Of a stretch of 56,600 nucleotides of DNA, positions 3,791-52,171 are shown piece by piece (position 1 is the stretch's first letter; every line of letters starts with the position of its first letter). The position numbers and the translations under genes are program-made. The notes under the pieces are model-generated. The model was not told where the DNA came from and searched no databases. It saw only the letters and a list, made by a program, of their open reading frames with translations. This stretch comes from Candidatus Nomurabacteria bacterium (GTDB taxonomy: Bacteria; Patescibacteriota; Minisyncoccia; Phycocordibacterales; UBA9973). Location: contig JAPLXV010000003.1 of assembly GCA_026395895.1 (NCBI GenBank), positions 1-56,600 of the forward strand. The letters are read 5' to 3'.

Positions 3791-4016
3791 TATTCATTGT
3801 ACAAAATTCGAACCTTTTTTGAAAGCAATCCTGATGAAGAAATCTGAAACAATGCGGACGAAGTTTTGCGGAAACAATTTTCTGGGGAAAGGATTCCGCA
3901 AAACTTCGGCTGATTCCTTTTTTCTGAATTCGGATGTCGCAAGCGGAGGAGGAGGGGTCTGGGGAGGAATCCTCCGCTTGCTCCTCTTTTTGTTTTGGCA
4001 AAATTCGGGCGGGCTT
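3791..4016 (+). repeat. Y arm: 226 bp inverted repeat, near-identical to 6046-6271
   Basis: I count 4 mismatches against the reverse complement of 6046-6271. Perfect internal stems CGAAGTTTTGCGGAA 3859-3873 / TTCCGCAAAACTTCG 3894-3908 and GCAAGCGGAGGA 3939-3950 / TCCTCCGCTTGC 3970-3981. Confidence 0.9.
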
Positions 4017-5503: not shown

Positions 5504-6040
5504 GTGGAATTTTCAGAAATTCTTAAAAGTATAGAAAGTAAGTCTACTAAAGCAAACCATGAGTTGATTTGGGCTTATTTTTTTATTTTTCACTTAAACA
5601 AAGAAAAATCTTTTGACTATGAAGTTGAGGAAGGTCCAAATGACTTAACCGATGTTTATGCAAAATCTAAAAGCGAAAAGTTTCCAGTTTTGAAATTACA
5701 ACTTACATGGGCAAAAGAAAAAGATTTCAGTCCTAAAATAGTAATTAAGGATTTGAAGTTTAGTACAGAAATTATTTTAGAAGCCGTTAAAAGAAAATAC
5801 GAAAAGTATGAAAAACAAGGTAAAGCGGATTCACTAAATGAAATAATTCTTGTTATACAAGGCGACCTTCCAAGTGGGTGGGATGATTTAGTTGATGATA
5901 AAAAAATAAAAGAAGAAATTGTAAAATATCCTTTTCGTGGAATTTATTACATTACTCCACCTGGAACTAAATCATCCTTGAAAGATAGAACGCCTATTAT
6001 GCATAACGGATTCGTTCTATGTTTCAAGGAGGCATTTTAA
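5504..6040 (+). CDS. Hypothetical protein (element cargo); start uncertain (GTG 5504 or ATG 5438)
   Basis: The ORF is open over 5438-6040. GTG at 5504 lies 1 nt after the upstream stop, whereas ATG at 5438 would overlap by 65 nt. Confidence 0.55.
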   Translation: MEFSEILKSIESKSTKANHELIWAYFFIFHLNKEKSFDYEVEEGPNDLTDVYAKSKSEKFPVLKLQLTWAKEKDFSPKIVIKDLKFSTEIILEAVKRKYEKYEKQGKADSLNEIILVIQGDLPSGWDDLVDDKKIKEEIVKYPFRGIYYITPPGTKSSLKDRTPIMHNGFVLCFKEAF

Positions 6041-6045
6041 TTTAT

Positions 6046-6271
6046 AAGCCCGCCCGAATTTCGCCAAAACAAAAAGAGGAGCAAGCGGAGGATTCCTCCC
6101 CAGACCCCTCCTCCTCCGCTTGCGACATCCGAATTCGGAAAAAAGGAATCAGCCGAAGTTTTGCGGAATCCTTTCCCCAGAAAATTGTTTCCGCAAAACT
6201 TCGTCCTCATTGTTTCAGATTTCTTCATCGGGATTGCTTTCAAAAAAGGTTCGAATTTTGTACAATGAATA
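6046..6271 (-). repeat. Y' arm, inverted copy of 3791-4016, abutting the attR core at 6272-6277
   Basis: See 3791-4016. Confidence 0.9.
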
Positions 6272-6816: not shown

Positions 6817-6954
6817 TTAGAAAAATAATGTAACGAAGTGAAATATATTTTTCTTAACCCTGTTAAATAATTTTTGCAAGGTAAAAATTGCCCGAAGGGC
6901 ATTTAACAGGGTGATGATTTTTATACTCATTACATTCGTTAAAAATCAATCATG
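6817..6954 (+). ncRNA. Structured leader element, copy 1 (ends at the ATG of the cupin gene)
   Basis: Shares TTAGAAAAATAA...ATATTTTTCTTAACCC..GTTAAATAATTTT...TTTAACAGGGTGATGATTTT...AAAATCAATCATG with 27631-27776. There is a 12 bp stem 6857-6868/6901-6912 enclosing two hairpins. Confidence 0.55.
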
Positions 6955-9715: not shown

Positions 9716-11530
9716 ATGCTGATTTCTTATAAATGGTTAAAAAATTATGTTCCAGATTTACCAGAGCCAAATAAATTGGTAGATATTTTTACATTTCATC
9801 TTTGTGAAGTAGAAGGAACAAAAAAAACAGAAGACGATACCATTTTTGATTTAAATATTTTGCCGGATAGAGCACATGACTTGCTATCTTATAGGGGAGT
9901 AGCTAGGGACTTAGCAGGGCTTCTGGATATAGAATATAAAGACATAGAGTATAAAATTGAAGTAGGTGGAACTACAAAGCTTTCTATAAAAGTAGAAAGT
10001 GAAAATTGCCGTAGATATATGGGTAGAATAATAAAAAAGGTAGAGGTTTTACCTTCCCCAGACTGGATGAGGAATTATCTTTTATCGATGGACCAACGCT
10101 CAATAAATAATTTAGTTGACGCTTCTAATATTGTTATGTTCGACAGAGGAAATCCTATTCATGTTTTTGATTTAGATAAAGTAGAGGGTAGTATAATAAT
10201 TCGCCAAGCAAAAGAAGGAGAAAAAATGACTACACTAGATAATAAGGAAGTTAAATTAAGTCCTTCAAATATGGTTATTGCCGACGAAAAAAATATTTTG
10301 GCTCTTGCTGGGGTGAAGGGTGGAAAAATAGCAGAAGTAGATGAAAATACAAAAAATATAATTATTGAAGTTGCCAATTTTGATCCGATAAGCGTGAGAA
10401 AAACTTCCAAAGAAGTAAATATATTTACTGACGCAGTAAAGAGATTTGAAAATGATTTATCTCCTGAAGTAGCAAGTGATGCGATAAATGATATGAGCGC
10501 TTTAGTTTTAGAGATGTGTAGAGGTGCTATCTTAGAAGAGGTAGTGGATGTTTATACAAAAAAACAAGAGAAGATAAAATTATCTTTTGATATAAAAAAG
10601 ATATCTAAAAGATTAGGTTTAGATATTTCTATTACTACAGTTCAAGACATATTAAAACGTTTTGGTGTTCTATATAAAAACACTGGTAACAATTTTGAGA
10701 TTATTGTTCCCGATATGAGGCTTGATCTAAAAACAAAAGAAGATATGTCTGAAGAAATAATAAGAATTTTAGGATACGATAAAATAAAACCAAAAATTCC
10801 CAAAATAAATTTTAAACCACAAGTAAACGAGGTATATGCCAAAATTTCTTGGGCAAGAAATAAACTTTTAAACGAGGGATATAGTGAAGTGATGACTTAT
10901 ACTTTTTGTAATAAAGGAGAAGTGGAAGTGCTTGCTTCTGCTTCAGATAAGAAATTCTTAAGAACAAATTTGAGTGATGGATTAAAAGAAAGTCTAAAAT
11001 TAAATCAACTAAATATGCCGTTGCTCGAGATGGATGAAATAAAAATTTTTGAAATAGGAACTGTTTTTTTGGAAGATAAAGAACAGATGAATGTTTGTTA
11101 TGCAGATAAGAAAAATATTACAGAAGTTTCTTTGGAAACGTTTTGTATGAATTCTCCTCTTGAGGAGTACTCCGACTTAAAGTTGGAGGGAGGTGGAGGT
11201 GTTTTCCACCCCGCCTTCGGCACCCCTCAAGAGGGGAATAAATTCAAACTCTGGTCTCTATTTCCATTTATTGTTCGTGACATTGCAGTTTGGGTTCCGG
11301 AAGAAATAAAAAGTGTAGATGTGGAAAAAGTCATAAAAAATAGTATGGGAGAGCTTGTAATTCGAGGTCCAGAACTCTTTGATCAGTTCAAAAAAGATGG
11401 CAAAATATCCTATGCTTTCAGGCTAGTTTTTCAGTCCTACGATAGGACCCTTACAGATGCTGAAATAAACGAAATTATGACTAAAATAACCAATAAAATC
11501 AAGGAGAAAAATGATTGGCAAGTAAGGTAG
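9716..11530 (+). CDS. pheT: Phenylalanine--tRNA ligase beta subunit (short form, no OB-fold tRNA-binding B2 domain)
   Basis: MLISYKWLKNYV start, ILPDRAHDLLSYRGVARDLA, B3/4 and B5 regions, and a C-terminal FDX-ACB-like domain (RDIAVWVPEE...YAFRLVFQS). Confidence 0.93.
   Translation: MLISYKWLKNYVPDLPEPNKLVDIFTFHLCEVEGTKKTEDDTIFDLNILPDRAHDLLSYRGVARDLAGLLDIEYKDIEYKIEVGGTTKLSIKVESENCRRYMGRIIKKVEVLPSPDWMRNYLLSMDQRSINNLVDASNIVMFDRGNPIHVFDLDKVEGSIIIRQAKEGEKMTTLDNKEVKLSPSNMVIADEKNILALAGVKGGKIAEVDENTKNIIIEVANFDPISVRKTSKEVNIFTDAVKRFENDLSPEVASDAINDMSALVLEMCRGAILEEVVDVYTKKQEKIKLSFDIKKISKRLGLDISITTVQDILKRFGVLYKNTGNNFEIIVPDMRLDLKTKEDMSEEIIRILGYDKIKPKIPKINFKPQVNEVYAKISWARNKLLNEGYSEVMTYTFCNKGEVEVLASASDKKFLRTNLSDGLKESLKLNQLNMPLLEMDEIKIFEIGTVFLEDKEQMNVCYADKKNITEVSLETFCMNSPLEEYSDLKLEGGGGVFHPAFGTPQEGNKFKLWSLFPFIVRDIAVWVPEEIKSVDVEKVIKNSMGELVIRGPELFDQFKKDGKISYAFRLVFQSYDRTLTDAEINEIMTKITNKIKEKNDWQVR
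11192..11242 (+). repeat. GC-rich hairpin module in frame in pheT (shares a 22-mer with trmD)
   Basis: GGTGGA 11192-11197 / TCCACC 11205-11210. CACCCCTCAAGAGGGGAATAAA at 11221-11242 is identical to 24809-24830. It encodes GGGVFHPAFGTPQEGNK. Confidence 0.8.
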
Positions 11531-11552: not shown

Positions 11553-13631
11553 ATGGCTAAAGAAAAAGAAGTAAAAAATGGGCACCATTATGATGCCTCT
11601 GATATCTCTGTTTTAGAAGGACTTGATCCAGTCAGACGTCGTCCAGGAATGTATATCGGAACCACCGGTCCAGAAGGTTTACACCATCTCGTTTGGGAAA
11701 TTTTTGATAACTCGCGCGATGAAGCGATGGGTGGTTTTTGTGATGATATAGAAGTTGTCCTTTTGCCGAACAATCGTATTCGAGTGGCAGACAATGGGCG
11801 AGGTGTGCCTGTTGATATTCACAAAAAAACTAAAGTATCTGCTTTGGAAACTGTTATGACTACTCTGCATGCTGGAGGAAAATTCGGTGGAGAAGGCTAT
11901 AAAGTTTCTGGAGGCTTGCATGGAGTGGGAGCGTCAGTAGTAAATGCGCTCTCAATTTATTGTAAAGCGGAAGTGCATAAAGATGGTGGTAAATATATAC
12001 AAGAATATTCTCAAGGTAAGAAAAAAGCTTCAGTAAAAAAAATTGGGTCTTCAAAATTACATGGAACCATCATTACTTTTGAACCAGATCAAGAAATTTT
12101 TAAAGATATAAAGTTTGATTTAAGTACAATTATAAATCATATTCGTCAGCAAGCTTATTTAGTTAAAAAATTAAAAGTTTCAATAATAGATGCGCGAGGT
12201 TGGGATAATAAAAAAGGACTTGATGACTCTGACGTATTTTATTTTAGAGATCTTGGCATAGAACTTCCCTCCACTTCTTTTTATTTTGAAGGAGGATTGA
12301 TTTCTCTTATAAAATATTACAACAAGTTTCAAAAACCACTTCACGATCATATTTTTTATGTTGAAAAAGAATTGGACGGTGTGATGGTTGAAATAGCTTT
12401 ACAATATGTTGATGACATTGTTGATAGAATAATTCCTTTCGCAAATAATATACATACCGCTGAAGGTGGGACACATGTGACTGGTTTTAAAACTGCTCTT
12501 ACTCGCACCTTGAATACTTATTGTAAAAAGAATGAAATGATGAAAGATTCAGAAGGTGGATTTACCGGCGATGATGTACTGGAAGGTCTTACAGCTGTCA
12601 TTTCGGTGAAGTTAAGAGAGATACAATTTGAAGGTCAAACCAAGGCAAAATTAGGCTCTATGGAGGCCCAAGGAGCTGTTGGGACAATTTTTGGGGAGGC
12701 TTTTGCTGCTTTTCTAGAGGAAAACCCAGATGAAGCAAAAGCTATAATAAATAAGTCTATTTTGGCCTTAAAAGCTCGTAAAGCAGCCAAAGCGGCTAAA
12801 GATTCAGTTCTTCGTAAAGGTGCGCTTGAAGGTATGACCCTGCCTGGAAAATTAGCAGATTGCCAAAGCAAAAGTGCAGAAGATTCAGAATTATTTTTAG
12901 TAGAAGGAGATTCGGCAGGAGGTTCGGCTAAACAAGGTAGAGATAGACGCACTCAAGCCATTCTTCCGCTTCGTGGAAAAATTTTAAATGTTGAACGTGC
13001 TCGCATAGATAAAATGCTTGCTTCTAAAGAAGTAAGAGCTCTGGTTATTGCGATGGGTACTTCTATTGGAGACACTTTTGATCTTTCTAAAATGCGTTAT
13101 CACAAAATAATTATTGCCACAGATGCTGATGTGGACGGTGCGCACATTCGCACCCTTTTGCTGACTCTTTTTTATAGATATTTTAGACAAGTTGTGGACG
13201 CGGGCTATATTTATATTGCTCAACCACCACTTTATAAAATAAAAAGAGGAAAGGAAGTTAGTTATGCATATTCCGATGAAGAGAAAATAAAAATTATCGG
13301 TAAAGAAACAGATGTAAGTGAGATACAAGCGGTTAATGATGAAGAACCCCTACCCGACCTCCCCCTTAGTAAGGGGGAGGAGAAAGGAGGGGGTCTAGAG
13401 TCTAAACAATCTACAAAAATTCACATTCAGCGTTATAAAGGTCTCGGAGAAATGAACCCAGAAGAACTTTGGGAAACAACCATGGACCCAGCTCATCGAG
13501 TATTAAAAAAAGTAAATATAGATGATGCCGAAGAGGCCAACAAAATTTTTGAAATTCTGATGGGTTCCGAAGTTCCTCCTCGAAAATCCTTTATCCAATC
13601 TAATGCTAAATTAGCAGAGATTGATATTTAA
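11553..13631 (+). CDS. gyrB: DNA gyrase subunit B
   Basis: YDASDISVLEGLDPVRRRPGMYIG, GGLHGVGASVVNALS, EGDSAGGSAKQGRDR, PLRGKILNVE, QRYKGLGEMNPEELWETTMDP. Confidence 0.97.
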   Translation: MAKEKEVKNGHHYDASDISVLEGLDPVRRRPGMYIGTTGPEGLHHLVWEIFDNSRDEAMGGFCDDIEVVLLPNNRIRVADNGRGVPVDIHKKTKVSALETVMTTLHAGGKFGGEGYKVSGGLHGVGASVVNALSIYCKAEVHKDGGKYIQEYSQGKKKASVKKIGSSKLHGTIITFEPDQEIFKDIKFDLSTIINHIRQQAYLVKKLKVSIIDARGWDNKKGLDDSDVFYFRDLGIELPSTSFYFEGGLISLIKYYNKFQKPLHDHIFYVEKELDGVMVEIALQYVDDIVDRIIPFANNIHTAEGGTHVTGFKTALTRTLNTYCKKNEMMKDSEGGFTGDDVLEGLTAVISVKLREIQFEGQTKAKLGSMEAQGAVGTIFGEAFAAFLEENPDEAKAIINKSILALKARKAAKAAKDSVLRKGALEGMTLPGKLADCQSKSAEDSELFLVEGDSAGGSAKQGRDRRTQAILPLRGKILNVERARIDKMLASKEVRALVIAMGTSIGDTFDLSKMRYHKIIIATDADVDGAHIRTLLLTLFYRYFRQVVDAGYIYIAQPPLYKIKRGKEVSYAYSDEEKIKIIGKETDVSEIQAVNDEEPLPDLPLSKGEEKGGGLESKQSTKIHIQRYKGLGEMNPEELWETTMDPAHRVLKKVNIDDAEEANKIFEILMGSEVPPRKSFIQSNAKLAEIDI
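13346..13394 (+). repeat. GC-rich palindromic module in frame in gyrB (family 3)
   Basis: 10 bp stem CCTCCCCCTT 13358-13367 / AAGGGGGAGG 13371-13380. Outer pair ACCCC 13346-13350 / GGGGT 13390-13394. It encodes PLPDLPLSKGEEKGGG just upstream of the RYKGLGEMNP motif. Confidence 0.8.
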
Positions 13632-17418: not shown

Positions 17419-19566
17419 ATGCGACTAAAAAACCTTGAAATAAATGGCTTTAAATCATTTTCTAAAAAAACTGTTTTGGAGTTTCAAAATTCGATTGTGG
17501 CTATTGTCGGTCCCAATGGATCTGGTAAATCAAATGTAGTGGAAGCTTTGCGTTTTGTTTTAGGCGAACAGTCAATGAAATCAATGCGTGGGTCATTGGG
17601 AGCTGATTTGATTTTTAAAGGGTCAAAAAACTTACCCAAAAGTTCCCGAGCAACTGCTACTATATATTTTAATAACTCTGATAAAATTTTTAAACTTTCT
17701 AATGAAACAGGAGAAAATATAAATTTAAATTATGATGTTATTTCAATTTCTCGTGAAGTTTTTTCTGATGGCTTAAATAAATATATTTTGAATGGTTCAG
17801 AAGTAAGATTAAAAGATATTAATAATCTTTTATCCTCAGTTAATATTGGTTCTTCTGGGCACCATATTATTTCGCAAGGTGAGGCGGACAGAATTCTAAA
17901 TGCTTCTCCTAGGGATAGAAGGGAAATGGTAGAAGATGCTCTTGGACTTAAAATTTACCAATATAAAATAAAAGAAGCGCAACGCAAATTAGAAAGAACT
18001 ACCGACAATATGAAAGAGGTTTCACTTTTGCGTCGAGAAAATGCTCCGCATTTAAATTTTCTAAAAAAACAAGTAGATAAATTTGAAAAAGCAAAAGAAA
18101 TGCAGGTAACATTGTTATCTCTTTATAAAGAATACTTAAAGAAAGAAAGTGTTTATTTAGAAAAAGAACAATCAAATTTACTTTCAGAAAAAAATAAAAT
18201 TTCTTTAGAGTTGAAAAACGTAAAAGAGAAAATCTCTGATACAGATGAAACTGAAAAGAGAGGAGAAAGTGAAAAAGAAAAAGAATTAAAAGTATTTGAA
18301 AAAAAGATAAGTGAAATTCATGCAGTCAAAAATGAAATAGAACGCAAATTGGGAAGAATTGAAGGAATTCTTGAATCAAAAGGAAATAAAGTTAAAATTT
18401 CTGGTAAATGTCCTTTATGTGGCAGTGAAATTAAGGAAAAAGAAGAAGGTCAGATAGAAAAGAGACAAAATGATGAAAAAGAATTGGAAGAATTAAAAAA
18501 TTCTCAAGCTGGTATTCTAGCTGAAATGGAGAATTTAAAAAATGAGGAGGGAAATATTTTTGAAAAAATAGAAATATTGAAAAAAGAAATTAATCAAGAG
18601 AATGAAGCTCTGCATATAAAAGAAAAGGAGAAATTTAATTTTAGAGTTAGGCACCAAGAGTTATCCTCTTCTTTAGATCTAATTTCTGTCAAAGAACAAA
18701 ATCTTAAAAGAGAGATAGAATCTTTCGAAAATGAAATAAAAGAAGGTGAAGCTTTAATTGGAAGTGAAATTTTGTCTTATAAAAATTTTGAGGTGAATGA
18801 AATAATTGATAGAAATGCGCAAGAAGAATCAAGACGAAAAATTGAACGTATAAAAATGAAGTTAGAAGACGTTGGTGTGGGTGGAGGATCAGAAGTAATG
18901 AAAGAATATGAGGAAGTTTTTCAAAGAGATAATTTTTTAGCCAAAGAGATGGAAGATTTAGCTGTAAGTATAGAGTCTCTTCGAAAATTGATGGCAGATT
19001 TGAAAGAAAAAATAGATATAGAATTTAAAGAGGGTATTAAGAAAATAAATGTAGAGTTTGATAAATTCTTTTCTTTGATGTTTGGCGGAGGAACTGGCTA
19101 TCTTGCAATTGTTGTTGAAAGTAAAAAGAAGAAAGAAGCCCCGACGCTCGAAGAGGTCGGGGTCCCGACTCCTGATGAAGATCAGGACGTCGGGAAAGAA
19201 ATCGTTCCTGAACAAGGCATTGAAATTAATGTTTCGCTTCCACATAAAAAAGTGAAAGAACTGAATGCACTTTCTGGAGGAGAAAGGTCTCTTACCTCTA
19301 TTGCTCTTCTTTTTGCTATGTCCCAAGTAAATCCACCGCCATTTTTGGTACTTGATGAAACAGATGCTGCGCTAGACGAAGCAAATTCTCGCAAATATGG
19401 GGATATGCTAGAAAAACTCTCTCATCACTCTCAGCTTATAGTCGTTACTCATAATAGGGAAACAATGTCTCGCGCTGGCATTTTATATGGCGTCACTATA
19501 GGTTCCGATGGTGCCTCCAAACTTCTCTCTGTCAAACTGGACGAAGCCGCCGCAATTGCAAAGTAA
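17419..19566 (+). CDS. smc: SMC-family ATPase, short form (715 aa) with no recognisable hinge and a central CPLC motif
   Basis: SMC-type heads: GFKSFSKKTVLEF...GPNGSGKSNVVEALRFVLGEQS at the N-terminus and LSGGERSLTSIALLFAM...FLVLDETDAALDEAN...VVTHNRETM at the C-terminus. The middle is all coiled coil, with GKCPLCGSE at aa 331-334. Confidence 0.85.
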   Translation: MRLKNLEINGFKSFSKKTVLEFQNSIVAIVGPNGSGKSNVVEALRFVLGEQSMKSMRGSLGADLIFKGSKNLPKSSRATATIYFNNSDKIFKLSNETGENINLNYDVISISREVFSDGLNKYILNGSEVRLKDINNLLSSVNIGSSGHHIISQGEADRILNASPRDRREMVEDALGLKIYQYKIKEAQRKLERTTDNMKEVSLLRRENAPHLNFLKKQVDKFEKAKEMQVTLLSLYKEYLKKESVYLEKEQSNLLSEKNKISLELKNVKEKISDTDETEKRGESEKEKELKVFEKKISEIHAVKNEIERKLGRIEGILESKGNKVKISGKCPLCGSEIKEKEEGQIEKRQNDEKELEELKNSQAGILAEMENLKNEEGNIFEKIEILKKEINQENEALHIKEKEKFNFRVRHQELSSSLDLISVKEQNLKREIESFENEIKEGEALIGSEILSYKNFEVNEIIDRNAQEESRRKIERIKMKLEDVGVGGGSEVMKEYEEVFQRDNFLAKEMEDLAVSIESLRKLMADLKEKIDIEFKEGIKKINVEFDKFFSLMFGGGTGYLAIVVESKKKKEAPTLEEVGVPTPDEDQDVGKEIVPEQGIEINVSLPHKKVKELNALSGGERSLTSIALLFAMSQVNPPPFLVLDETDAALDEANSRKYGDMLEKLSHHSQLIVVTHNRETMSRAGILYGVTIGSDGASKLLSVKLDEAAAIAK
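19139..19195 (+). repeat. 57 nt double-hairpin module in frame in smc (family 1, TCCCGAC/GTCGGGA)
   Basis: CCCCGAC-N10-GTCGGGG, then TCCCGAC-[TCCTGAT GAAG ATCAGGA]-C-GTCGGGA. It encodes APTLEEVGVPTPDEDQDVGK. Confidence 0.85.
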
Positions 19567-21485: not shown

Positions 21486-23611
21486 TATGTTGTTAGCGCA
21501 TAATCTATCGTTTTTCTTTCTAAATCAACACTTTTTACTTTTATCTTTACTCGGTCGCCTAGTCTGTATTTTTTCCCCGACGCTTTCGGTCGGGATCCCG
21601 GCCCCAAAGGGCGTCGGGACTTTTTCCCTTGTCCGACTAGTTCCAATTTTTTTTCATTAAAAATATAAAAATTATCTTCCATATCTCGTACTCGTACCAG
21701 ACCCTCGCATTTTGTTTCTACTTCTTCTACATAAATACCCCATTCTGTTATACCACTAATAATACCTTCAAATGTTTTTGAAATACGAGAAGACATATAT
21801 TCAACTTGTTTGTATTTTATAGAGGCTCGTTCAGCATCTGAAGCAAATTTTTCTCTTTCTGATGCTTTTCTGGAAATTTCTTCATAGATACTTAATTTCT
21901 CTTTGCCCACTTTTAATCCTTTTAGGTAATCTGTCAAAAGTCTGTGGACTACTACATCTGGGTAGCGTCTGATGGGGGAAGTAAAATGAGCATAGTATTC
22001 AAAAGCCAAACCATAGTGGCCGACATTTTTTGTGGAATAAATTGCTTTGGCCATAGAGCGTATAATTGCGCGATTGACTGTATTTTCTTCATTTTTTCCC
22101 TCAAGACTCTTTAGAAGATTATTTAATTCATAATTTGGAATAACCCCATCAATTAAAGATATTTTATATCCCAAACTCCTTAAAAAGAATGCCAAATCAG
22201 TCATTTTTTCTTTACTAGGATTATCATGGATACGATAGACAAATACTCCTCCATCTTTCTTGGTGCCTTTGGAGATAGTTTCAGCCACTTTTTTATTTGC
22301 TAAAAGCATAAATTCTTCAATTAATTTGTTTGAATCACCTCGTACTTTTTTTATTACTTTTAACGGTGTTCCATTTTTATCTAAAACAAATTTTACTTCT
22401 TCTTGTTCGAGCGAGATAGCTCCATTTGCAAATCTTTCTTTGTTCAATTTTTTAGCCAAATTATTTAAAATAAAAAGTTCTTTGTGCAGTGGCGCTGAAT
22501 TTTCTTTTATAGATTTTTCCGCTTCTTCGTAAGTAAATCTTTTTTGAGAATGTATCACCGTACGTCCGTACCATTCTTTTTTTACTTGCGCGTTTTTGTC
22601 TAGGACAAAAACTGCGCTCATGGTCAGTCTGTCTTTATTGGGAACTAGAGAACAGAGGTCGTTAGAAAGTACTTCCGGAAGCATTGGGATAGTTCTATCT
22701 ACTAAATAAACAGAAGTGCCTCTTTTTTTTGCTTCCTTATCAATTTCGCTTCCAATTTTTACATAATGAGAAACGTCGGCTATATGAATTCCGATTTCAT
22801 ATACCTCACCCCCTAACCCCCTCTCCTTGAAACCCCCTTGCTCCCCCTTATCAAGGGGAAACCATTTGCCTCCCCTGACAAGGGGAGGTCTGGAGGGGTT
22901 AAGGAGAGGGGGGAGAATACGGAATGAAATGGCATCATCAAAATCTTTTGCATCATCTGGGTCAATAGTAAAAGTGAGAGTTTTTCTAAAATCGCGTCGC
23001 CCATTATAATCTTCATTTTTAATACCTAAACTTTTTATTTTTTCCGCTTCCTCCTCAACTTTTTGAGGCAGTTCACTATCAAACCCTTTTTCTATAGCGA
23101 TAGCATGCATTTCCGCATTATTGTCTCCGGGTTTTCCTAAAACTTTTATTATTTTTCCTTCTGGTGCTTTTAGTCCATCTTTCCAAAAAATTATTTCTGT
23201 ATAGACTTTTTGTCCTGCCTTTGCGCCATTTAGCATTTTTTCGGGTATTAGAATATCGGTATACATTTTTGTATCATCGGGTTTTAGAAAATATATGCCG
23301 TCTTCTTTCTCTAAGACTCCCGAAAAGCCCATCTTTGCACGAGAGATTATTTTTAATACTTCGGCTGTCAAACGCCCTTTTCCTTTTGGATGCAAAGTAA
23401 TTTCAACCATATCACCGTGCAGAGCTGTATTTAAGTGCCTAAAATCAATCTCAGGGTCCTTCCCGACGTTCTGATTTCTATCAGAAGTCGGGATCCCGAC
23501 CCCATTGGGCGTCGGGACCTCATTCAATATTCTTACATATCCAATACCCTTGCTTGTTATAGATATAATACCCTGTACTGTCTTTTGAATTTTTTTTGTT
23601 TTTCCTTTCAC
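21485..23611 (-). CDS. rnr: Ribonuclease R (start probably GVG-context GTG at 23611; track ORF extends to 23722)
   Basis: Cold-shock/OB N-terminus, an RNB domain (DPDDAKDFDDA, GIHIADVSHYV, VYLVDRTIPMLP) and a C-terminal S1 domain. The 23612-23722 extension overlaps the rpsP start region on the opposite strand. Confidence 0.9.
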   Translation of the reverse strand: MKGKTKKIQKTVQGIISITSKGIGYVRILNEVPTPNGVGIPTSDRNQNVGKDPEIDFRHLNTALHGDMVEITLHPKGKGRLTAEVLKIISRAKMGFSGVLEKEDGIYFLKPDDTKMYTDILIPEKMLNGAKAGQKVYTEIIFWKDGLKAPEGKIIKVLGKPGDNNAEMHAIAIEKGFDSELPQKVEEEAEKIKSLGIKNEDYNGRRDFRKTLTFTIDPDDAKDFDDAISFRILPPLLNPSRPPLVRGGKWFPLDKGEQGGFKERGLGGEVYEIGIHIADVSHYVKIGSEIDKEAKKRGTSVYLVDRTIPMLPEVLSNDLCSLVPNKDRLTMSAVFVLDKNAQVKKEWYGRTVIHSQKRFTYEEAEKSIKENSAPLHKELFILNNLAKKLNKERFANGAISLEQEEVKFVLDKNGTPLKVIKKVRGDSNKLIEEFMLLANKKVAETISKGTKKDGGVFVYRIHDNPSKEKMTDLAFFLRSLGYKISLIDGVIPNYELNNLLKSLEGKNEENTVNRAIIRSMAKAIYSTKNVGHYGLAFEYYAHFTSPIRRYPDVVVHRLLTDYLKGLKVGKEKLSIYEEISRKASEREKFASDAERASIKYKQVEYMSSRISKTFEGIISGITEWGIYVEEVETKCEGLVRVRDMEDNFYIFNEKKLELVGQGKKSRRPLGPGSRPKASGKKYRLGDRVKIKVKSVDLERKTIDYALTT
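21575..21619 (-). repeat. 45 nt double-hairpin module in frame near the rnr C-terminus (family 1, read in a different frame)
   Basis: CCCGAC-GCTTTCG-GTCGGG, then TCCCGGC-CCCAAAGGGC-GTCGGGA. It encodes SRRPLGPGSRPKASG. Confidence 0.8.
22807..22914 (-). repeat. ~108 nt nested multi-hairpin GC-rich module in frame in rnr, just upstream of the HIADVS catalytic motif (family 3)
   Basis: Outer 12 bp stem CCCCCTCTCCTT 22817-22828 / AAGGAGAGGGGG 22901-22912. Inner hairpins CCCCTT-ATC-AAGGGG (22844-22858) and CCTCCCCT-GACA-AGGGGAGG (22869-22888). It encodes PPLLNPSRPPLVRGGKWFPLDKGEQGGFKERGLGGE. Confidence 0.85.
23461..23517 (-). repeat. 57 nt double-hairpin module in frame in the rnr N-terminal region (family 1)
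   Basis: TCCCGAC-[GTTCTGAT TTCT ATCAGAA]-GTCGGGA, then TCCCGAC-CCCATTGGGC-GTCGGGA. Same length, orientation and frame as the smc copy. It encodes VPTPNGVGIPTSDRNQNVGK. Confidence 0.85.
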
Positions 23612-23982: not shown

Positions 23983-24044
23983 TCGTATATAATTATTACA
24001 GCAGTGCAGTTAATCATTTAAGGTCGTAACACTGCCAAACATTT

Positions 24045-24075
24045 CAGCCAGTGGGCTGATCCGCCTACTGGCGGA
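24045..24075 (+). repeat. Intergenic tandem-hairpin module (family 2, TCCGCC/GGCGGA)
   Basis: CAGCC-AGTG-GGCTG, A, TCCGCC-TACT-GGCGGA. Same architecture as the 30 nt modules in rpoB and the HMA permease gene. Confidence 0.7.
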
Positions 24076-27776: not shown

Positions 27777-30700
27777 CAAACAGAAAAACGTCCAAAGAAG
27801 TATTTTGCCAGATACAAGGATCCATTAATAGAATTTCCTAATTTAATAGAAGCTCAAACTAAATCTTACAAGTGGCTTGTGGAAGAGGGTTTGAAGGAAG
27901 TTTTTAAGGAATTTTCTCCAATCATCGATTACTCTGGAAAAAAGTTTGAACTTGAGTTCACCTCTTTTTCTTTGGGTGAGCCTAATTGCGATGAGAATGA
28001 TGCGAAAATAAATAAACTCTCATATCAAGGGCTTTTGAAGACGCGAGTAAAATTAAAAAATAAAATTTTAGGAACCGAAAAAGAGCAAGAAATTTTTATG
28101 TCTGAAATTCCACTTATGACTGCACACGGAACTTTTATTATCAATGGAGTAGAGCGTGTGATTGTGCCACAGCTTGCAAGAAGTTTTGGAGTCTTTTTTA
28201 CTGAATCTGAAAATAAAGGCAAAAGATATTTTGGGGCAAAAATTATTCCAGCTCGTGGAGTTTGGATTGAAATAGAATCAGAATCTGATGGGGCAATTTA
28301 TATAAGAATAGACAAAAAAAGAAAATTTCCTGCTACCGCTTTGCTTCGAGTAATGGGATATGAAACGAATGAGATGATGCTCAAAGCATTTTCCGCCAAA
28401 GGCGGACAAGCCTCTGGCTTGGAAAACATATGCAAAGAAGCCATTGAAGCTTGTTTGGCAAAAGATGTAGCCAAAACATTAAATGATGCATATATTGAAA
28501 TATATAAACGCTTAAGAGACGGAGACATGGCTACTCCCGAGAATGCTAAAGAATTTATTAATTCTTTATTTACCCCTGAAAGATATGATCTTTCTCCAGT
28601 TGGACGATACCGATTTAATAAACGTTTTGAAAAATCTCTGGAAGAAGACGAACTTGCTCGCCGAACTATTTCTAAAGAAGATTTAATGACTGTCATTGCA
28701 AATATTATTGTTTTAAACAATACTCCTGGAGCTAAATCCGACGATATTGATCACTTGGGCCAAAGACGTGTTCGATTTGTTGGAGAAATGCTTCAGCAAA
28801 AAGTGCGTACTGGTATGATGCAAATAAAGAGAAACATTCAAGACAGAATGTCTATTATTGATGTTGATACTGCCATGCCCATCCATATTATCAATCAACG
28901 TCCACTCCAAGCTCGCATTAAAGAATTTTTTACTACCAACCAACTTTCGCAATTTATGTCGCAGGAAAATGTGCTGGCAGAGATAGAACACATTCGTTTG
29001 CTTTCTGCCCTTGGTCCTGGGGGACTTACTCGTGAACGCGCAGGTCTAGAAGTTCGAGACGTGCACCCTTCTCACTATGGACGTGTTTGTCCTATTCATA
29101 CTCCAGAAGGTCCAAACATTGGACTTATTTTACATCTTTCTACTTATGCAAAAATAAATGATTTTGGAATTATTGAAACTCCATATATAAAAGTTAAAAA
29201 TGGAAAAATCACCGGAGAAGTTCAATATTTAAATGCACTGGAAGAAGAAAAATACAATATTGCCCATGCTGGAATTCTTTATGATGAGCATGGAAAAATA
29301 ACAGAAGAAAAAGTAGCAGCCAGAATAAAAACTAATCCAGGAATGATAAATCGCGATCAAGTTGATTTTATTGATGTGGCTGCTAATCAGGGTTTTTCTC
29401 TAGCAACTTCTATGATTCCATTTTTGGAACATAATGACGCTAACCGTTCGCTCATGGGAAGTAACATGCAAAAACAAGCAGTGCCTTGTGTTCTTCCTGA
29501 AGCACCATTGGTGGCCACCGGAATTGAAGCGATGGCTTCTCGCTACTCTGGTAGAATGGTTATTGCTTTAGAAGATGGGGTTGTTTCTTATTTAGATGCA
29601 AAGAAAATAGTAGTCAAAGGAAAATCAGAAAAAACTTATACGCTCGTTAATTTTTTGAGGAATAATAACTTTTCTGCCTTTCATCAACGTCCTTCGGTAG
29701 ATGTTGGCCAAAAAATAAAAAAAGGAGACGTTTTAGCTGATACAACCAGCACAGTAGATGGACAAATTTCAGTTGGACAAAATATCTTTGTGGCTTTCTT
29801 GTCTTGGTCTGGATCAAACTATGAAGATGCTATAGTTATTTCTGAACGTCTTATAAAAAAGAGTAAATTTACCAGTGTTTATGTTGAAGAGTTCGTTTGC
29901 ACAGTTCGTGATACGAAACTTGGACCTGAAATTACTACTCGAGATATTCCAAACGTTGGAGAATTAAAACTAAAAGATTTGGATGAGGATGGTATCGTTC
30001 GTATTGGAGCTGAAGTGAGAGAGAATGATATTTTAATAGGTAAAATTACTCCCAAAGGTGAAACAGAACTTACTCCAGAAGAAAGATTACTTCGTTCAAT
30101 TTTTGCCGAAAAAGCACGTGATGTGAAAGATACATCACTTCGCATGGAACACGGCAAACGTGGACGTATTATTGGTGTTAAAATTTTCTCTCGCGATTTA
30201 GGTCATACACTTGAAGCAGGAATTATTAAAAAGATTGTGATTGAAGTTGCTCAAATTAGAAATATTTCAGTCGGGGATAAACTTTCTGGACGACACGGAA
30301 ACAAAGGAGTTATTTCAAGAATTCTTTCAGAAGAAGATATGCCTTATACAGCAGATGGTACACCAGTTGATATTGTTCTTTCACCTTTAGGTGTTCCTTC
30401 TCGTATGAATCTAGGACAAGTTTTAGAAATGCATCTTGGTATGGCAGCCAATACTCTAGGATATCAAGCCATCGTTCCTCCATTTTTAGGAGCCAGTCAT
30501 GAAGAAATAAAAGAGGAATTAAAGAAAGCTGGATTTCCTGAAAATGGTAAATTAAAACTTTTTGACGGACGCACAGGAGAAGCTTTTGATCAAGATATTG
30601 CTGTTGGTTATATGTATATGTTGAAGCTTCATCATATGGTAGAAGATAAAATTCATATGCGTTCTATTGGACCTTACTCTCTTATTACTCAACAGCCATT

Positions 30701-35532: not shown

Positions 35533-37323
35533 ATGAATTCACCAGTCGAACAAATTAAGGAGAGGCTTTCGATTGAAGAGATAGTCTCTTCCTACATAAA
35601 ACTAGAAAAAGCGGGCGCAAACTTTAAAGCCAAGTGTCCTTTTCACAATGAAAAGACACCTTCCTTTTTTGTCTCTCCAGACCGTGGCAGTTATTATTGT
35701 TTTGGTTGTGGAGCTAAGGGTGATATTTTCACTTTTATAGAAGAATTTGAAGGGCTTGATTTTAAGGGTGCATTAAAAATCTTGGCCGAACGTGCAGGAG
35801 TTTCGCTTGCGCAATACAGTAGAGAAAAAGAAGGAGAAAAGGAAAAATTATACAGAGCGATGGAAGAATCAACCAAATTTTTTGAAAAAAATTTAGAAGA
35901 GAACAAAAAAGCGCTAGAATATCTGAAGGCAAGAGGGTTAGAAGATAAAACTATTAAAGATTTTAGAATTGGATTTGTAAAAAATGATTGGCGTTTGCTT
36001 TACACTTATCTTAGAGATAAAAATTTTACAGATATAGAAATAGAAAAAGCTGGATTAATTAAATACCCCCACCCGGCCTCCCCCGAAGGAGGAGGAGGAG
36101 AATTACCCTCTCCTTTGGGGAGGGTTGGGAGGGGTTATGATAGATTTCGTGGGCGAATTATGTTTCCGATTTCAGATTCGAGTGGTCGCATCATCGCTTT
36201 TTCCGGCAGAATTTTTGAGGATGACCCTTCGACAAGCTCAGGGCAGGCGGTTAATCAGGCCAAATATTTAAACAGTCCAGATACCCCAATTTTCAGCAAA
36301 TCAGCCGTTTTATATGGATTAGACAAAGCTAAAGAATCAATCCGCAAAAATAATTTTTCTATTCTAGTTGAAGGACAAATGGATCTAGTTTTGTCTCACC
36401 AAGCAGGGTTTAGAAATACTGTAGCCACTTCTGGGACAGCTCTTTCAGATTCTACAGTTTCCAAAGAAAATGTTGTATCAAATTTAGGGCTATTACGTCG
36501 TCTTTCTGGGAATATTGTTTTGGCTTTTGATGCAGATCGCGCAGGATTTAATGCCTCTTCACGCGCAGGTAAAATTGCTCTTTCTTTTGGGATGGATGTA
36601 AAAGTAGTTTCTATGCCAGAGGGTATTGACCCAGCCGATTTAATTTCTAAAAGCGGAACGGACGCCTGGCGTACGGCTATTCGTAATTCAAAACATATCA
36701 TAGAGTTTTTATTGGATAAAGTTTTGGCTAGTCATAAAGATGATATGCGCAAAGCTGGGAGAGAAATAAGAGAAAAAGTATTGCCTTATGTTGATGCTGT
36801 TGAAAGTTCAATCGAGAAATCACATTTTATTAAGCTTATTAGTAATAAATCGGGGATAGCTGAAAATGCACTTCTAGAAGATTTAAAGAAAGTTCAATCC
36901 GAATTAAAGTCTGAAACGGAAGAAACAAAAATTGCTACAGAAAATGTGGAGAAAAGAATGAGAAAAGACCCGATTGAACGTAGACTTTTAGGTATAGCTT
37001 TTTGGCAAGAAAGTATTCAAAAGAAAACAATAGATCCAGAATTAATCTTTCAAAAATTAGATAAAGTGAAAGAAATTTATAAAAATATAAAAGAAGACTT
37101 AATTTATGAAGCGGAAGAATTTTATTTGGATAACGAAAATTTACAAAAAGATGTAAAGGAAATGCTATTGAATATAGAAGAAGAATATTTGAATGAAGAT
37201 TTGAATGAAAAAATGGTAGAATTAAAAGATTTTAAAGATAGAAAAGAAGAAGTAGAAATTTTAAAAAAGATAGACGAGATACATAAAAGAAAAGAAAAAA
37301 TTAAAAATAGAAGCGGTCGTTAA
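35533..37323 (+). CDS. dnaG: DNA primase DnaG
   Basis: Zinc-binding [14 protein letters not shown]....[11 protein letters not shown], a TOPRIM domain ([22 protein letters not shown]) and [11 protein letters not shown] at 35533 is preferred over the track start. Confidence 0.93.
36065..36135 (+). repeat. GC-rich palindromic module in frame in dnaG (family 3)
   Basis: CCTCC-CCCGAA-GGAGG (36077-36092), CCCTCTCC-TTT-GGGGAGGG (36106-36124), and outer ACCCC/GGGGT. It encodes [23 protein letters not shown]. Confidence 0.8.
36223..36248 (+). repeat. Second GC-rich module in frame in dnaG (family 4, GACCCTTCGA...CTCAGGGCA)
   Basis: GACCCTTCGACAAGCTCAGGGCAGGC compares with GACCCTTCGATTTCTCTCAGGGCAAGC at 51584-51610. 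It encodes DPSTSSGQA. Confidence 0.65.
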
Positions 37324-51097: not shown

Positions 51098-52171
51098 ATG
51101 CAAAAAACATACACATTTCATGTAAACGGTATGCACTGTAACGCGTGTGTAGTATTAACCGAAAGCGAACTTTCTGAAGTGTCTGGGATTTCTGGTGTTA
51201 AAGCATCACTGAATGATTTTAGTGTTGAGGTAACAGGGGATTTTTCCGCCAGAGGCGGATCCGCCTCTGGCGGAGGAGATACACCAGAAGCTGTGGCTGA
51301 ATATTTATCTACAGTATTAAAACCACATGGTTATACGCTTTCGCTTCAAAAGGAAGAACATTTGGTTAAATGGTCTGATTTTCGCATTGCTTTGCCGATT
51401 GCCGTCGGTTTTGTTTTTGTGTTTTTTATTTTACAAAAACTTGGCATTGTAAATTTAATAAATGTGTCAAAAGTCAATTATGGAACTGCTTTTATTATTG
51501 GTCTTGTTGCTTCTGTTTCTACATGTATGGCGGTAGTTGGTGGTTTGGTTCTTTCTATGTCGGCAAATTTTGCTAAAGAAAACGACCCTTCGATTTCTCT
51601 CAGGGCAAGCAATATGCGACCGCAAATTTTATTTCATATTGGCCGGCTCGCATCGTTTTTTATTCTTGGTGGAGTAATCGGGGCACTTGGTTCGACATTT
51701 CAACTTGGGACAATTGGCACCTTTATTCTTAGTTTTATTGTGGCAATTGTTCTACTTATTCTCGGTATTAATCTTTTAGATGTTTTTCCTTGGGCAAAAA
51801 AACTTCAACCAACTATTCCAAGTTTTATTGGTAAACGTGTTCATGGTCTAAAAAATATTAATCATACCCTTACTCCTCTTTTGGTTGGTGTTGCCACTTT
51901 CTTTTTGCCTTGCGGTTTTACTCAATCAATGCAAATATATACTTTAACTACTGGAAGTTTTTTGACTGGATCTTTAATCATGTTTTCATTTGCTCTTGGA
52001 ACACTTCCAGTATTATCACTTTTAAGTTTTAGTTCATTGGGGATACATAAAAAAGCGCAGTCCGGAATTTTTTTCAAAACAGCTGGTCTTATTGTGATAT
52101 TTTTTGGAATCTTTAATCTAATCAATGCTTTGGTCGGCGCTGGAATTATTCCTCCAATTTTTAATTTTTAA
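51098..52171 (+). CDS. HMA domain fused to a DsbD_2/TauE-like permease
   Basis: N-terminal NGMHCNACV. The membrane domain has VSTCMAVVGG and FFLPCGFTQSMQIY. Confidence 0.8.
   Translation: MQKTYTFHVNGMHCNACVVLTESELSEVSGISGVKASLNDFSVEVTGDFSARGGSASGGGDTPEAVAEYLSTVLKPHGYTLSLQKEEHLVKWSDFRIALPIAVGFVFVFFILQKLGIVNLINVSKVNYGTAFIIGLVASVSTCMAVVGGLVLSMSANFAKENDPSISLRASNMRPQILFHIGRLASFFILGGVIGALGSTFQLGTIGTFILSFIVAIVLLILGINLLDVFPWAKKLQPTIPSFIGKRVHGLKNINHTLTPLLVGVATFFLPCGFTQSMQIYTLTTGSFLTGSLIMFSFALGTLPVLSLLSFSSLGIHKKAQSGIFFKTAGLIVIFFGIFNLINALVGAGIIPPIFNF
51245..51274 (+). repeat. Perfect 30 nt palindrome in frame in the HMA domain (family 2)
   Basis: TCCGCC-AGA-GGCGGA, then TCCGCC-TCT-GGCGGA. Codon-aligned; encodes SARGGSASGG. 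Confidence 0.85.
51584..51610 (+). repeat. Family 4 GC-rich module in frame in the permease domain
   Basis: GACCCTTCGATTTCTCTCAGGGCAAGC encodes DPSISLRAS. It is related to 36223-36248 in dnaG. Confidence 0.6.

Follow-up and report, generated by a model that had tools for sequence, protein, structure and literature searches.

The host gene and the palindrome

We analysed a 56,600-nt stretch of DNA from a Candidatus Nomurabacteria bacterium (assembly GCA_026395895.1, contig JAPLXV010000003.1; hereafter the window), and within it a gene whose product joins an HMA metal-binding domain to a DsbD_2/TauE-like membrane domain and which has a perfect 30-nt palindrome embedded at 51245-51274 of the forward strand (TCCGCCAGAGGCGGATCCGCCTCTGGCGGA, its own reverse complement). 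Pfam places the HMA domain at residues 6-50 of the host protein and DsbD_2 at residues 130-338. A copper-type P1B (P-type) ATPase gene lies upstream and a cupredoxin-like gene downstream, an operon context that recurs at the orthologous loci. The palindrome is read in frame within the host open reading frame (ORF) and yields SARGGSASGG, residues 50-59 of the product.

An earlier reading, made from the sequence alone, had described this palindrome and its location in the HMA ORF. We could confirm both: none of 100 dinucleotide-preserving shuffles of the window contained a match with three mismatches or fewer, and by our own arithmetic about 5e-5 perfect 30-nt palindromes are expected per 56.6 kb. 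The 30-mer forms an island of about 77% GC within a patescibacterial (Candidate Phyla Radiation, CPR) window of 34% GC, where the background is 34-36% and values range over 29-40%. When folded as RNA, the region was predicted to form a 16-bp hairpin of -31.4 kcal/mol (z = -6.1), while for single-stranded DNA the prediction was a hairpin of 13 bp on either strand, at about -18 kcal/mol, with z = -6.7 and -7.6. The third positions of the stem codons carry C at 6 of 8 sites, as against 17 of the 162 four-fold codons of the whole gene; given this atypical C, we conclude that the sequence of the insert is driven by the DNA and not by codon use.

The placement given by the sequence-only reading, between the beta-strands of the HMA domain, needs correction. 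In an AlphaFold2 model the domain comprises beta-1 (residues 3-10), alpha-1 (15-26), beta-2 (31-37), beta-3 (42-47), alpha-2 (63-77) and beta-4 (80-82), and the insert forms the loop between beta-3 and helix alpha-2. The HMA fold is retained, the insert notwithstanding, with a predicted local distance difference test (pLDDT) score of about 85, and residues 53-59, below 50, are the sole low-confidence stretch of the domain. As modelled, the insert would add a harmless ten-residue surface loop and leave the fold intact.

Filled and empty orthologues

We compared the window allele with its best 120 homologues, which are 71-100% identical and mostly 339-340 aa long when empty. The site is empty in 113 of them (VTGDF/GDKEPE, the slash marking the insertion point, with nothing between), and the other seven carry SA(R/I/L)GGSASGG or its remnants at this exact point. 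The empty loci L008 and L009 read GGG GAT TTT/GGT GAT AAA; at the filled site exactly 30 nt separate TTT from GGN, and the insertion lies directly after the codon of the invariant Phe49. No target-site duplication was seen at the HMA site when filled and empty DNA were compared. Since 113 of the 120 orthologues are empty and the filled site differs by exactly 30 nt, the palindrome is an insertion. Comparison with orthologous HMA-permease genes had been the check suggested for the idea of an inserted, spreading module, and it bears this idea out: the peptide is not conserved in the orthologues, and related copies do occur elsewhere, outside the window included.

The filled alleles differ in a characteristic way. 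The loops are AGA/TCT in the window, ATA/TCT in L001 and L002, ATA/TCG in L003 and L004, and ATA/TAT in L006, which is a perfect palindrome again; in these four intact alleles every change falls in the loops and the stems are invariant. By contrast with the intact copies, L007 has lost exactly one 15-nt hairpin and has a stem mismatch in the remaining one, and L005 (allele P0012, L005:3148-3198) has 21 extra nucleotides (...DARLPDWH...) nested in hairpin 1 and a stem mismatch in hairpin 2. In the four intact alleles all eight stem codons (Ser TCN, Ala GCN, Gly GGN) keep the same base at the four-fold third position (8/8), compared with 5 of 94 four-fold sites in the rest of the gene, where the mean pairwise difference is 0.67 (Fisher P = 6e-9). 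Identity of the insert is 93-97% for each pair of alleles, and that of the 45-nt flanks on either side is 40-82%, except for the downstream tract shared by the window and L001.

The host gene contains a second polymorphic insertion hotspot at 51584-51613 (residues 163-172). The window reads ...KENDPSISLRASNMRPQ there and most orthologues read ...KEGDKVRPQ; alternative alleles have DPSIPLRAGN or DPTSPRLRWAMQ, and a single allele has AVQALNSPQARR. This hotspot may represent another family of inserted modules.

Transfer between alleles

A maximum likelihood tree restricted to the membrane domain (residues 95-357) scatters the seven filled alleles: their distribution requires seven changes, at least five of them forced by well-supported branches, and filled and empty alleles form supported sister pairs (P0001-P0004, 99/91; P0002-P0017, 100/97; P0018-P0091, 100/92). 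Sliding nucleotide identity locates the discrepancy. Along the gene the window allele is 80-95% identical to the empty alleles P0003 and P0004, its closest whole-gene relatives, yet over codons ~53-75 it is only 50-60% identical to them and 95-100% identical to the filled allele P0002. The 45 nt immediately 3' of the insert are 96% identical between the window and L001. A dip at this patch is present in every filled/empty sister pair; for P0018 and P0091 the successive segment identities are 0.93, 0.95, 0.31, 0.95, 0.90 and 0.96, with the minimum at residues 60-75. Conserved blocks flank the patch, EVTGDF on one side and LKPHGY on the other, and its left junction lies no more than about 6 nt from the insert.

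From this drop in identity we conclude that about 75 nt were transferred as a unit, namely the insert and some 45 nt after it that encode the beginning of helix alpha-2. Together, the polyphyly of the filled alleles and the ~75-nt patch show that the unit was moved between diverged orthologous alleles by homologous recombination or gene conversion. This is the answer, for the present copy, to what the sequence-only reading had called a natural test of how such modules spread: it spread among orthologues as a recombination patch. The gene is a mosaic outside the patch as well. When the window is compared with L008 and L009, codons 29-51 match P0003 and not P0004, and codons 90-112 show the reverse, which indicates that this copper-operon gene recombines frequently. 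Because other segments are mosaic too, a role of the element as initiator of recombination is not demonstrated. Overall, one gene offers empty, intact, half-deleted and disrupted copies along with a mapped recombination patch, which makes it a clean natural experiment.

The double-hairpin family

The palindrome is one copy of a non-coding, GC-rich mini repeat of 30 nt that consists of two adjacent inverted hairpins, with the consensus NNNGCC-NNA-GGCNNN followed by NNNGCC-TNN-GGCNNN. We searched one genome per species with TCCGCCNNNGGCGGANNNGCCNNNGGC and obtained at least 129 unique sites in at least 120 genome stretches; the statistics on structure, loops, phase and taxonomy given here rest on the matches listed, 129 sites of which 102 are bona fide. 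Hairpin 2 has three unconstrained outer pairs; in 102 of the 129 listed sites each of them is Watson-Crick, where chance would give about 1/64, and the stem of this hairpin occurs in at least nine versions among the matches listed.

The sequence-only reading had left two folds open, a pair of hairpins or a single 15-bp cruciform arm. Covariation supports the former. For the two-hairpin fold 97.7% of the cells are paired and 79, counted at the outer 3 bp of hairpin 2, are changed on both sides, compared with 28 +/- 4 after shuffling (0 of 500 shuffles as high), and the covariation score is 0.171 versus 0.063 (again 0 of 500 as high). As a conserved fold the long hairpin can be discarded, as it shows no excess of such changes (27 vs 28) and its pair 3-28 is unpaired in 52 of 103 cases.

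The loops follow NNA and TNN among the matches listed. Of the 102 listed bona fide sites, 10 have a loop 1 that is reverse complementary to loop 2, with 10.6 expected; this symmetry does not exceed chance, and perfect palindromy is accordingly a variant that arises by chance. Self-complementarity is thus exact in the window copy and is not a property of the family. It is incidental, the product of a homodimer whose loops are the two commonest ones, AGA and TCT. Selection for perfect palindromy was likewise rejected, as loop matches are at expectation and the middle base of the loops shows, if anything, less symmetry than chance would give.

The listed sites tend to have symmetric flanks, TT(T/C)...(A/G)AA, with upstream T at frequencies of 0.56, 0.80 and 0.51 from -3 to -1, mirrored by downstream A. 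The T-run that precedes the insert at the HMA site matches this preference. We also considered, and rejected, a role as terminator, given that T-runs before and A-runs after the hairpins on both strands are the reverse of an intrinsic terminator. Half of the bona fide listed sites (51/102) fall within ORFs that are 150 aa or longer, and only 31 are in ORFs of under 80 aa. In the longer class the reading phases are distributed 35:8:8, favouring the phase that encodes the Ser/Ala/Gly-rich S-A-x-G-G-S-A-x-G-G.

By record title, the listed stretches comprise 54 from CPR/Patescibacteria, 57 from other phyla and 9 without label. The other phyla include Omnitrophota, Ignavibacteria, gammaproteobacterial metagenome-assembled genomes (MAGs), Planctomycetota, Verrucomicrobiota/Kiritimatiellae and Zixibacteria, and some of these non-CPR matches are on contigs of 0.36-1.63 Mb; the few high-GC matches are probably due to chance. 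No Rfam family was matched in the window or in ten loci of the nuclease cassette described below, where only tRNAs were found, and a literature search returned no description of such elements in CPR bacteria.

Two further copies lie within the window (Table 1). The rpoB copy is in frame and its second stem is changed on both sides with pairing kept. The intergenic copy lies between the S16 gene and a KH-domain gene and has the flanks TT...AAAAA.

Table 1. Position of the HMA insert, its surroundings and other hairpin features in the window
Feature	Position	Strand	Sequence or remark
Host gene, HMA metal-binding domain fused to DsbD_2/TauE-like membrane domain	51098-52171	+	Pfam, operon context
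T-run 5' of the insertion, including the invariant codon F49	51241-51244	+	Pre-existing target DNA
Double-hairpin element, here a perfect palindrome	51245-51274	+	In-frame insertion, exactly 30 nt relative to empty L008/L009
Hairpin 1	51245-51259	+	TCCGCC-AGA-GGCGGA, 6-bp stem, 3-nt loop
Hairpin 2	51260-51274	+	TCCGCC-TCT-GGCGGA
Downstream patch, start of helix alpha-2	51275-51319	+	GDTPEAVAEYLSTVL, transferred together with the insert
Related copy in rpoB, in frame (FSAKGGQASGL)	28392-28421	+	TCCGCC-AAA-GGCGGA / CAAGCC-TCT-GGCTTG
Related intergenic copy, 4-nt loops	24044-24075	+	TCAGCC-AGTG-GGCTGA / TCCGCC-TACT-GGCGGA
GC-rich hairpin islands of other families, first group	692-781, 11185-11239, 13347-13382, 22817-22913, 36060-36135		
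GC-rich hairpin islands of other families, second group	19133-19175, 21572-21628, 23482-23525		

Several contigs hold more than one copy: L064 has two (5845-5874 and 6865-6894) in a single 832-aa ORF, L025 has two identical copies (4587, 6408) whose identical flanks make them part of a larger repeat, and L079 has three sites within 3.5 kb. Separately, two other short GC-rich families of hairpin islands, CCCCTCC/GGAGGGG or TCCCGAC/GTCGGGA, occur inside long ORFs of the window, among them ligA-like, gyrB-like, smc-like and RNase R-like ORFs.

Copies in lake metagenomes

We examined assembled contigs from four lake or freshwater runs belonging to three studies. Depth is about 12 and about 22 outside 51224-51277 and reaches 790 and 8,336, respectively, exactly within it; loose ends of unrelated sequence begin at 51241-51243 and at 51274-51275, and contigs break at the element. 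The double hairpin is a high-copy sequence in the metagenomes of the source lake. The filled HMA allele is found in all four runs, and in three studies contigs from both sides overlap over the full 30 nt.

Association with a small GIY-YIG nuclease

A blind clustering of neighbours, in which 1,745 ORFs around the 129 listed sites were compared all-against-all, returned a single recurrent close neighbour, a protein of 79-94 aa found at six loci at a median of 32 nt from the element; a hidden Markov model (HMM) search added a seventh, L122. Pfam assigns the protein a GIY-YIG domain (E = 1e-10 to 1e-13), and its closest solved structures are UPF0213 (1zg2, 1ywl), followed by the SLX1 structure-specific endonucleases (4xlg, 6seh).

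The reverse test gave a consistent picture. With an alignment of the six mini GIY-YIG proteins, 80 metagenome loci were fetched by protein similarity alone, and 33 of them have an adjacent double hairpin within 120 nt, in 32 cases of exactly this type. It usually starts 37-69 nt upstream of the ATG, and several loci have a second double hairpin after the stop. The density of double hairpins is 2.04 per kb near the GIY-YIG gene versus 0.03 per kb in the rest of the loci, a 68-fold difference. These data show that the double-hairpin family is statistically associated with the nuclease gene and its tRNA-Ser surroundings.

The cassette consists of a 5' fragment of tRNA-Ser, the double hairpin (DH) as a constant part of its 5' side, the mini GIY-YIG gene of SLX1/UPF0213-like type and an intact tRNA-Ser. 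In every case the double hairpin lies inside the retained 5' fragment of the Ser-type tRNA, in the D-arm (GGCC/DH/GAGTGG) or in the anticodon loop (CTTG/DH/AAAAC), and the intact class-II tRNA gene begins 14-30 nt past the stop codon of the nuclease. We observed in cassettes L130, L132, L134, L139, L141, L147, L158, L169 and others that the double hairpin is internal to the tRNA fragment and not terminal, the tRNA homology running ~7-10 nt beyond it and ending just before the ATG.

Predicted viral contigs contain 15 bona fide double-hairpin sites, none with a GIY-YIG gene beside the element, and we rejected such contigs as carriers of the nuclease cassette. A separate observation concerns the window itself, where two stretches of ~200 nt (~3800-4010 and ~6050-6250), mutual reverse complements with internal hairpins, bracket about 2 kb beside a tRNA-Ser gene at 2054-2141.

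Discussion

Considering all the above results, we think it probable that the HMA palindrome is a mini repeat that has been dispersed through genomes, filtered for copies that stay in frame and passed on between alleles as a patch, its solo copies being mobilised by way of the mini GIY-YIG nuclease. Solo copies such as the HMA insert may be non-autonomous derivatives of the GIY-YIG cassettes. In such a scheme an extruded hairpin or cruciform would be recognised and cut by the structure-specific nuclease, host repair would complete the insertion, with a preference for TT/AA-like sites and no target duplication, and selection would keep only those copies that are in frame and in tolerant loops.

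We further propose, tentatively, that double hairpins and mini SLX1-like GIY-YIG genes might constitute an undescribed mobile system, a GIY-YIG counterpart of the repetitive extragenic palindromic (REP) sequences and their REP-associated tyrosine transposases (RAYTs). Such a system would combine a structure-specific nuclease of 79-94 aa that recognises extruded double hairpins, cassettes that invade tRNA-Ser, a cross-phylum spread of 30-nt copies in frame into essential genes, and their subsequent maintenance at the nucleotide level.

Several points weigh against our explanation. The invariance of the stems, despite a co-transferred flank that is ~45% diverged, is unexpected for a purely selfish relic and hints that selection or copy correction may be at work, for instance through selection on structure, arm-to-arm correction (quasi-palindrome templating) or conversion from other copies. 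The patch may be due to ordinary recombination and not to element-driven homing. An HMM search of the 56.6 kb of the window found no gene of the mini GIY-YIG family, and neither an empty HMA joint nor an empty-filled polymorphism was seen in the metagenome contigs, which hide rare variants. The association could also mean that the nuclease cassette uses the hairpin as a leader, an insulator or an immunity determinant. Many of the non-CPR matches are MAGs, and some labels may reflect binning errors. Finally, GIY-YIG enzymes are hydrolytic nucleases and are not known to have strand-transfer activity, and the copying of 30 nt into non-homologous sites is unexplained.

A first alternative is that a host function keeps the hairpin or the peptide loop, through translation pausing between beta-3 and alpha-2, mRNA stability, an RNase site or a flexible loop, with mobility being secondary. 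The 8/8 invariant four-fold stem sites, set against a 67% difference elsewhere, the strong predicted mRNA hairpin and an insert more conserved than both flanks in all pairs would fit such a function. However, 113 of the 120 orthologues do without the insert, L007 is partly deleted and L005 disrupted with the ORF nevertheless intact, the loop is disordered in the model, and the element also turns up in intergenic DNA, in genes unrelated to this one and in each of the three phases. We regard a host function as an unlikely primary cause.

We are similarly doubtful that the element entered the HMA site several times independently, by site-specific insertion or by true homing with a nuclease recognising the empty site, instead of by general recombination. 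The scatter of filled alleles on the gene tree would be expected from repeated entry, as would an upstream junction within ~6 nt of the insert and an insert whose conservation between the two patch types far exceeds that of its flanks. Nonetheless, the filled alleles share a derived downstream VA[E/D]YL[S/N] that is missing from the empty ones, patch identity is 0.60 between filled alleles versus 0.41 between filled and empty ones, and the window and L001 are 96-100% identical at the nucleotide level over the patch only. Moreover, the HMA locus has no linked nuclease gene, with one exception: two groundwater contigs have a small, more distant GIY-YIG gene ~2.4 kb downstream of their filled HMA gene (L003:6440-6733, L004:6379-6654).

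It is also improbable, and slightly more so, that the element is moved on single-stranded hairpins by an HUH Y1 enzyme of the RAYT/TnpA type, in the manner of REPs, of REPINs (REP doublets forming hairpins) or of IS200/IS605 miniatures, the GIY-YIG neighbourhood being coincidental. Two subterminal-type hairpins, a short conserved 5' target-like motif (TT(T/C)), the lack of a target-site duplication at the HMA site and the documented existence of REP dimers and intragenic REPs (PMC3733652) are all compatible with this mode of movement. Yet the element has no GTAG or CGTC tag, and the reverse test gave a 68-fold enrichment at GIY-YIG genes. The only recurrent family among the 1,745 neighbouring ORFs was GIY-YIG, with no transposase, in a clustering that included no dedicated search with a Y1_Tnp profile.

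It is very improbable that the palindrome has a local origin, from a 15-nt hairpin through template switching or inverted duplication, or that it is an assembly artefact: a perfect palindrome is the expected product of an intramolecular template switch, and Logan contigs do break at the element, but the identical sequence occurs with unrelated flanks in hundreds of contigs, the in-frame insert is present in independent ENA, NCBI, JGI and Logan assemblies, in three studies contigs from either side share all 30 nt, and loop symmetry in the family is at chance level.

REPs, Rickettsia palindromic elements (RPEs) and mitochondrial hairpin elements are widespread, and the movement of most of them is not understood. 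The HMA case reveals at least one route of spread between lineages, namely allelic recombination with about 45 nt of flank, and the tight, statistically strong link to a mini SLX1-like gene beside tRNA-Ser provides a concrete candidate enzyme. For the annotation of CPR and other uncultured bacteria, 30-nt modules explain odd Gly/Ser/Ala-rich insertions in conserved proteins, and they also explain contig breaks at such points in metagenome assemblies.

Comparison with known repeat systems

REPs are known for their association with RAYT genes, which they bracket. Double hairpins resemble them in several respects: the 30-nt unit is a short (20-40-nt class), GC-rich, high-copy and dispersed palindrome, it is sometimes found inside genes without inactivating them, and its copies bracket a small nuclease-type gene as REPs bracket RAYT. 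REP dimers and intragenic REPs are documented, with a GTAG or CGTC tag at one end (Di Nocera et al. 2013, PMC3733652). Such dimers are arranged head-to-head with a spacing of 0-2 bp and can form two hairpins or a long one, so that the double hairpin looks like a spacer-less version. There are also differences. Double hairpins end in TCC.../...GGA with TT(T/C)...(A/G)AA flanks and have neither GTAG nor CGTC; the recurrent neighbour in the clustering is a mini GIY-YIG gene (SLX1/UPF0213-like) in place of an HUH Y1 transposase; some half of the copies sampled are intragenic, whereas REPs are predominantly extragenic; and the consensus is common to many phyla, whereas REP families are species- or genus-specific.

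RPEs are palindromic elements of ~100-150 bp in Rickettsia and relatives that lie in frame in protein genes, essential ones included, and no enzyme is known to be linked to them. Like an RPE, the HMA double hairpin is in frame, translated and tolerated as a surface segment. Unlike RPEs, it is 30 nt long, four to five times shorter, and belongs to a family with its own consensus that is found in CPR and other phyla and not confined to the Rickettsiales. Miniature inverted-repeat transposable elements derived from DDE-transposase systems are recognised by terminal inverted repeats with a target-site duplication; at the HMA site (TTT/GGN) 30 nt are added and nothing is duplicated.

Mitochondrial genomes contain comparable elements, such as the double-hairpin elements (DHEs) of Allomyces. 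GC clusters are known from yeast mitochondria (PMC4478555) and repetitive hairpin elements from sponges (PMC2800124). The likeness of DHEs and GC clusters to our family lies in two adjacent short GC-rich hairpins scattered over an AT-rich genome, coding regions included, and in a mobility inferred from presence/absence polymorphism. These elements are, however, organellar, lineage-specific and without a nuclease gene, whereas the double hairpin is bacterial and tied to a GIY-YIG/tRNA cassette.

On the enzyme side, phage T4 SegB is a free-standing GIY-YIG homing endonuclease whose gene lies next to tRNA genes. The cassettes are similar in having a small GIY-YIG gene directly beside tRNA genes, and co-conversion of flanking markers with the inserted DNA, typical of homing, is seen at the HMA site as the ~45-nt downstream tract in polyphyletic filled alleles. 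The nearest relatives of the catalytic domain are nucleases cutting branched or stem-loop DNA. In contrast to SegB and SLX1, the cassette proteins are short, at only 79-94 aa, and lack a DNA-binding extension; each cassette contains a duplicated tRNA 5' fragment together with the double hairpin, and solo hairpins spread without the gene.

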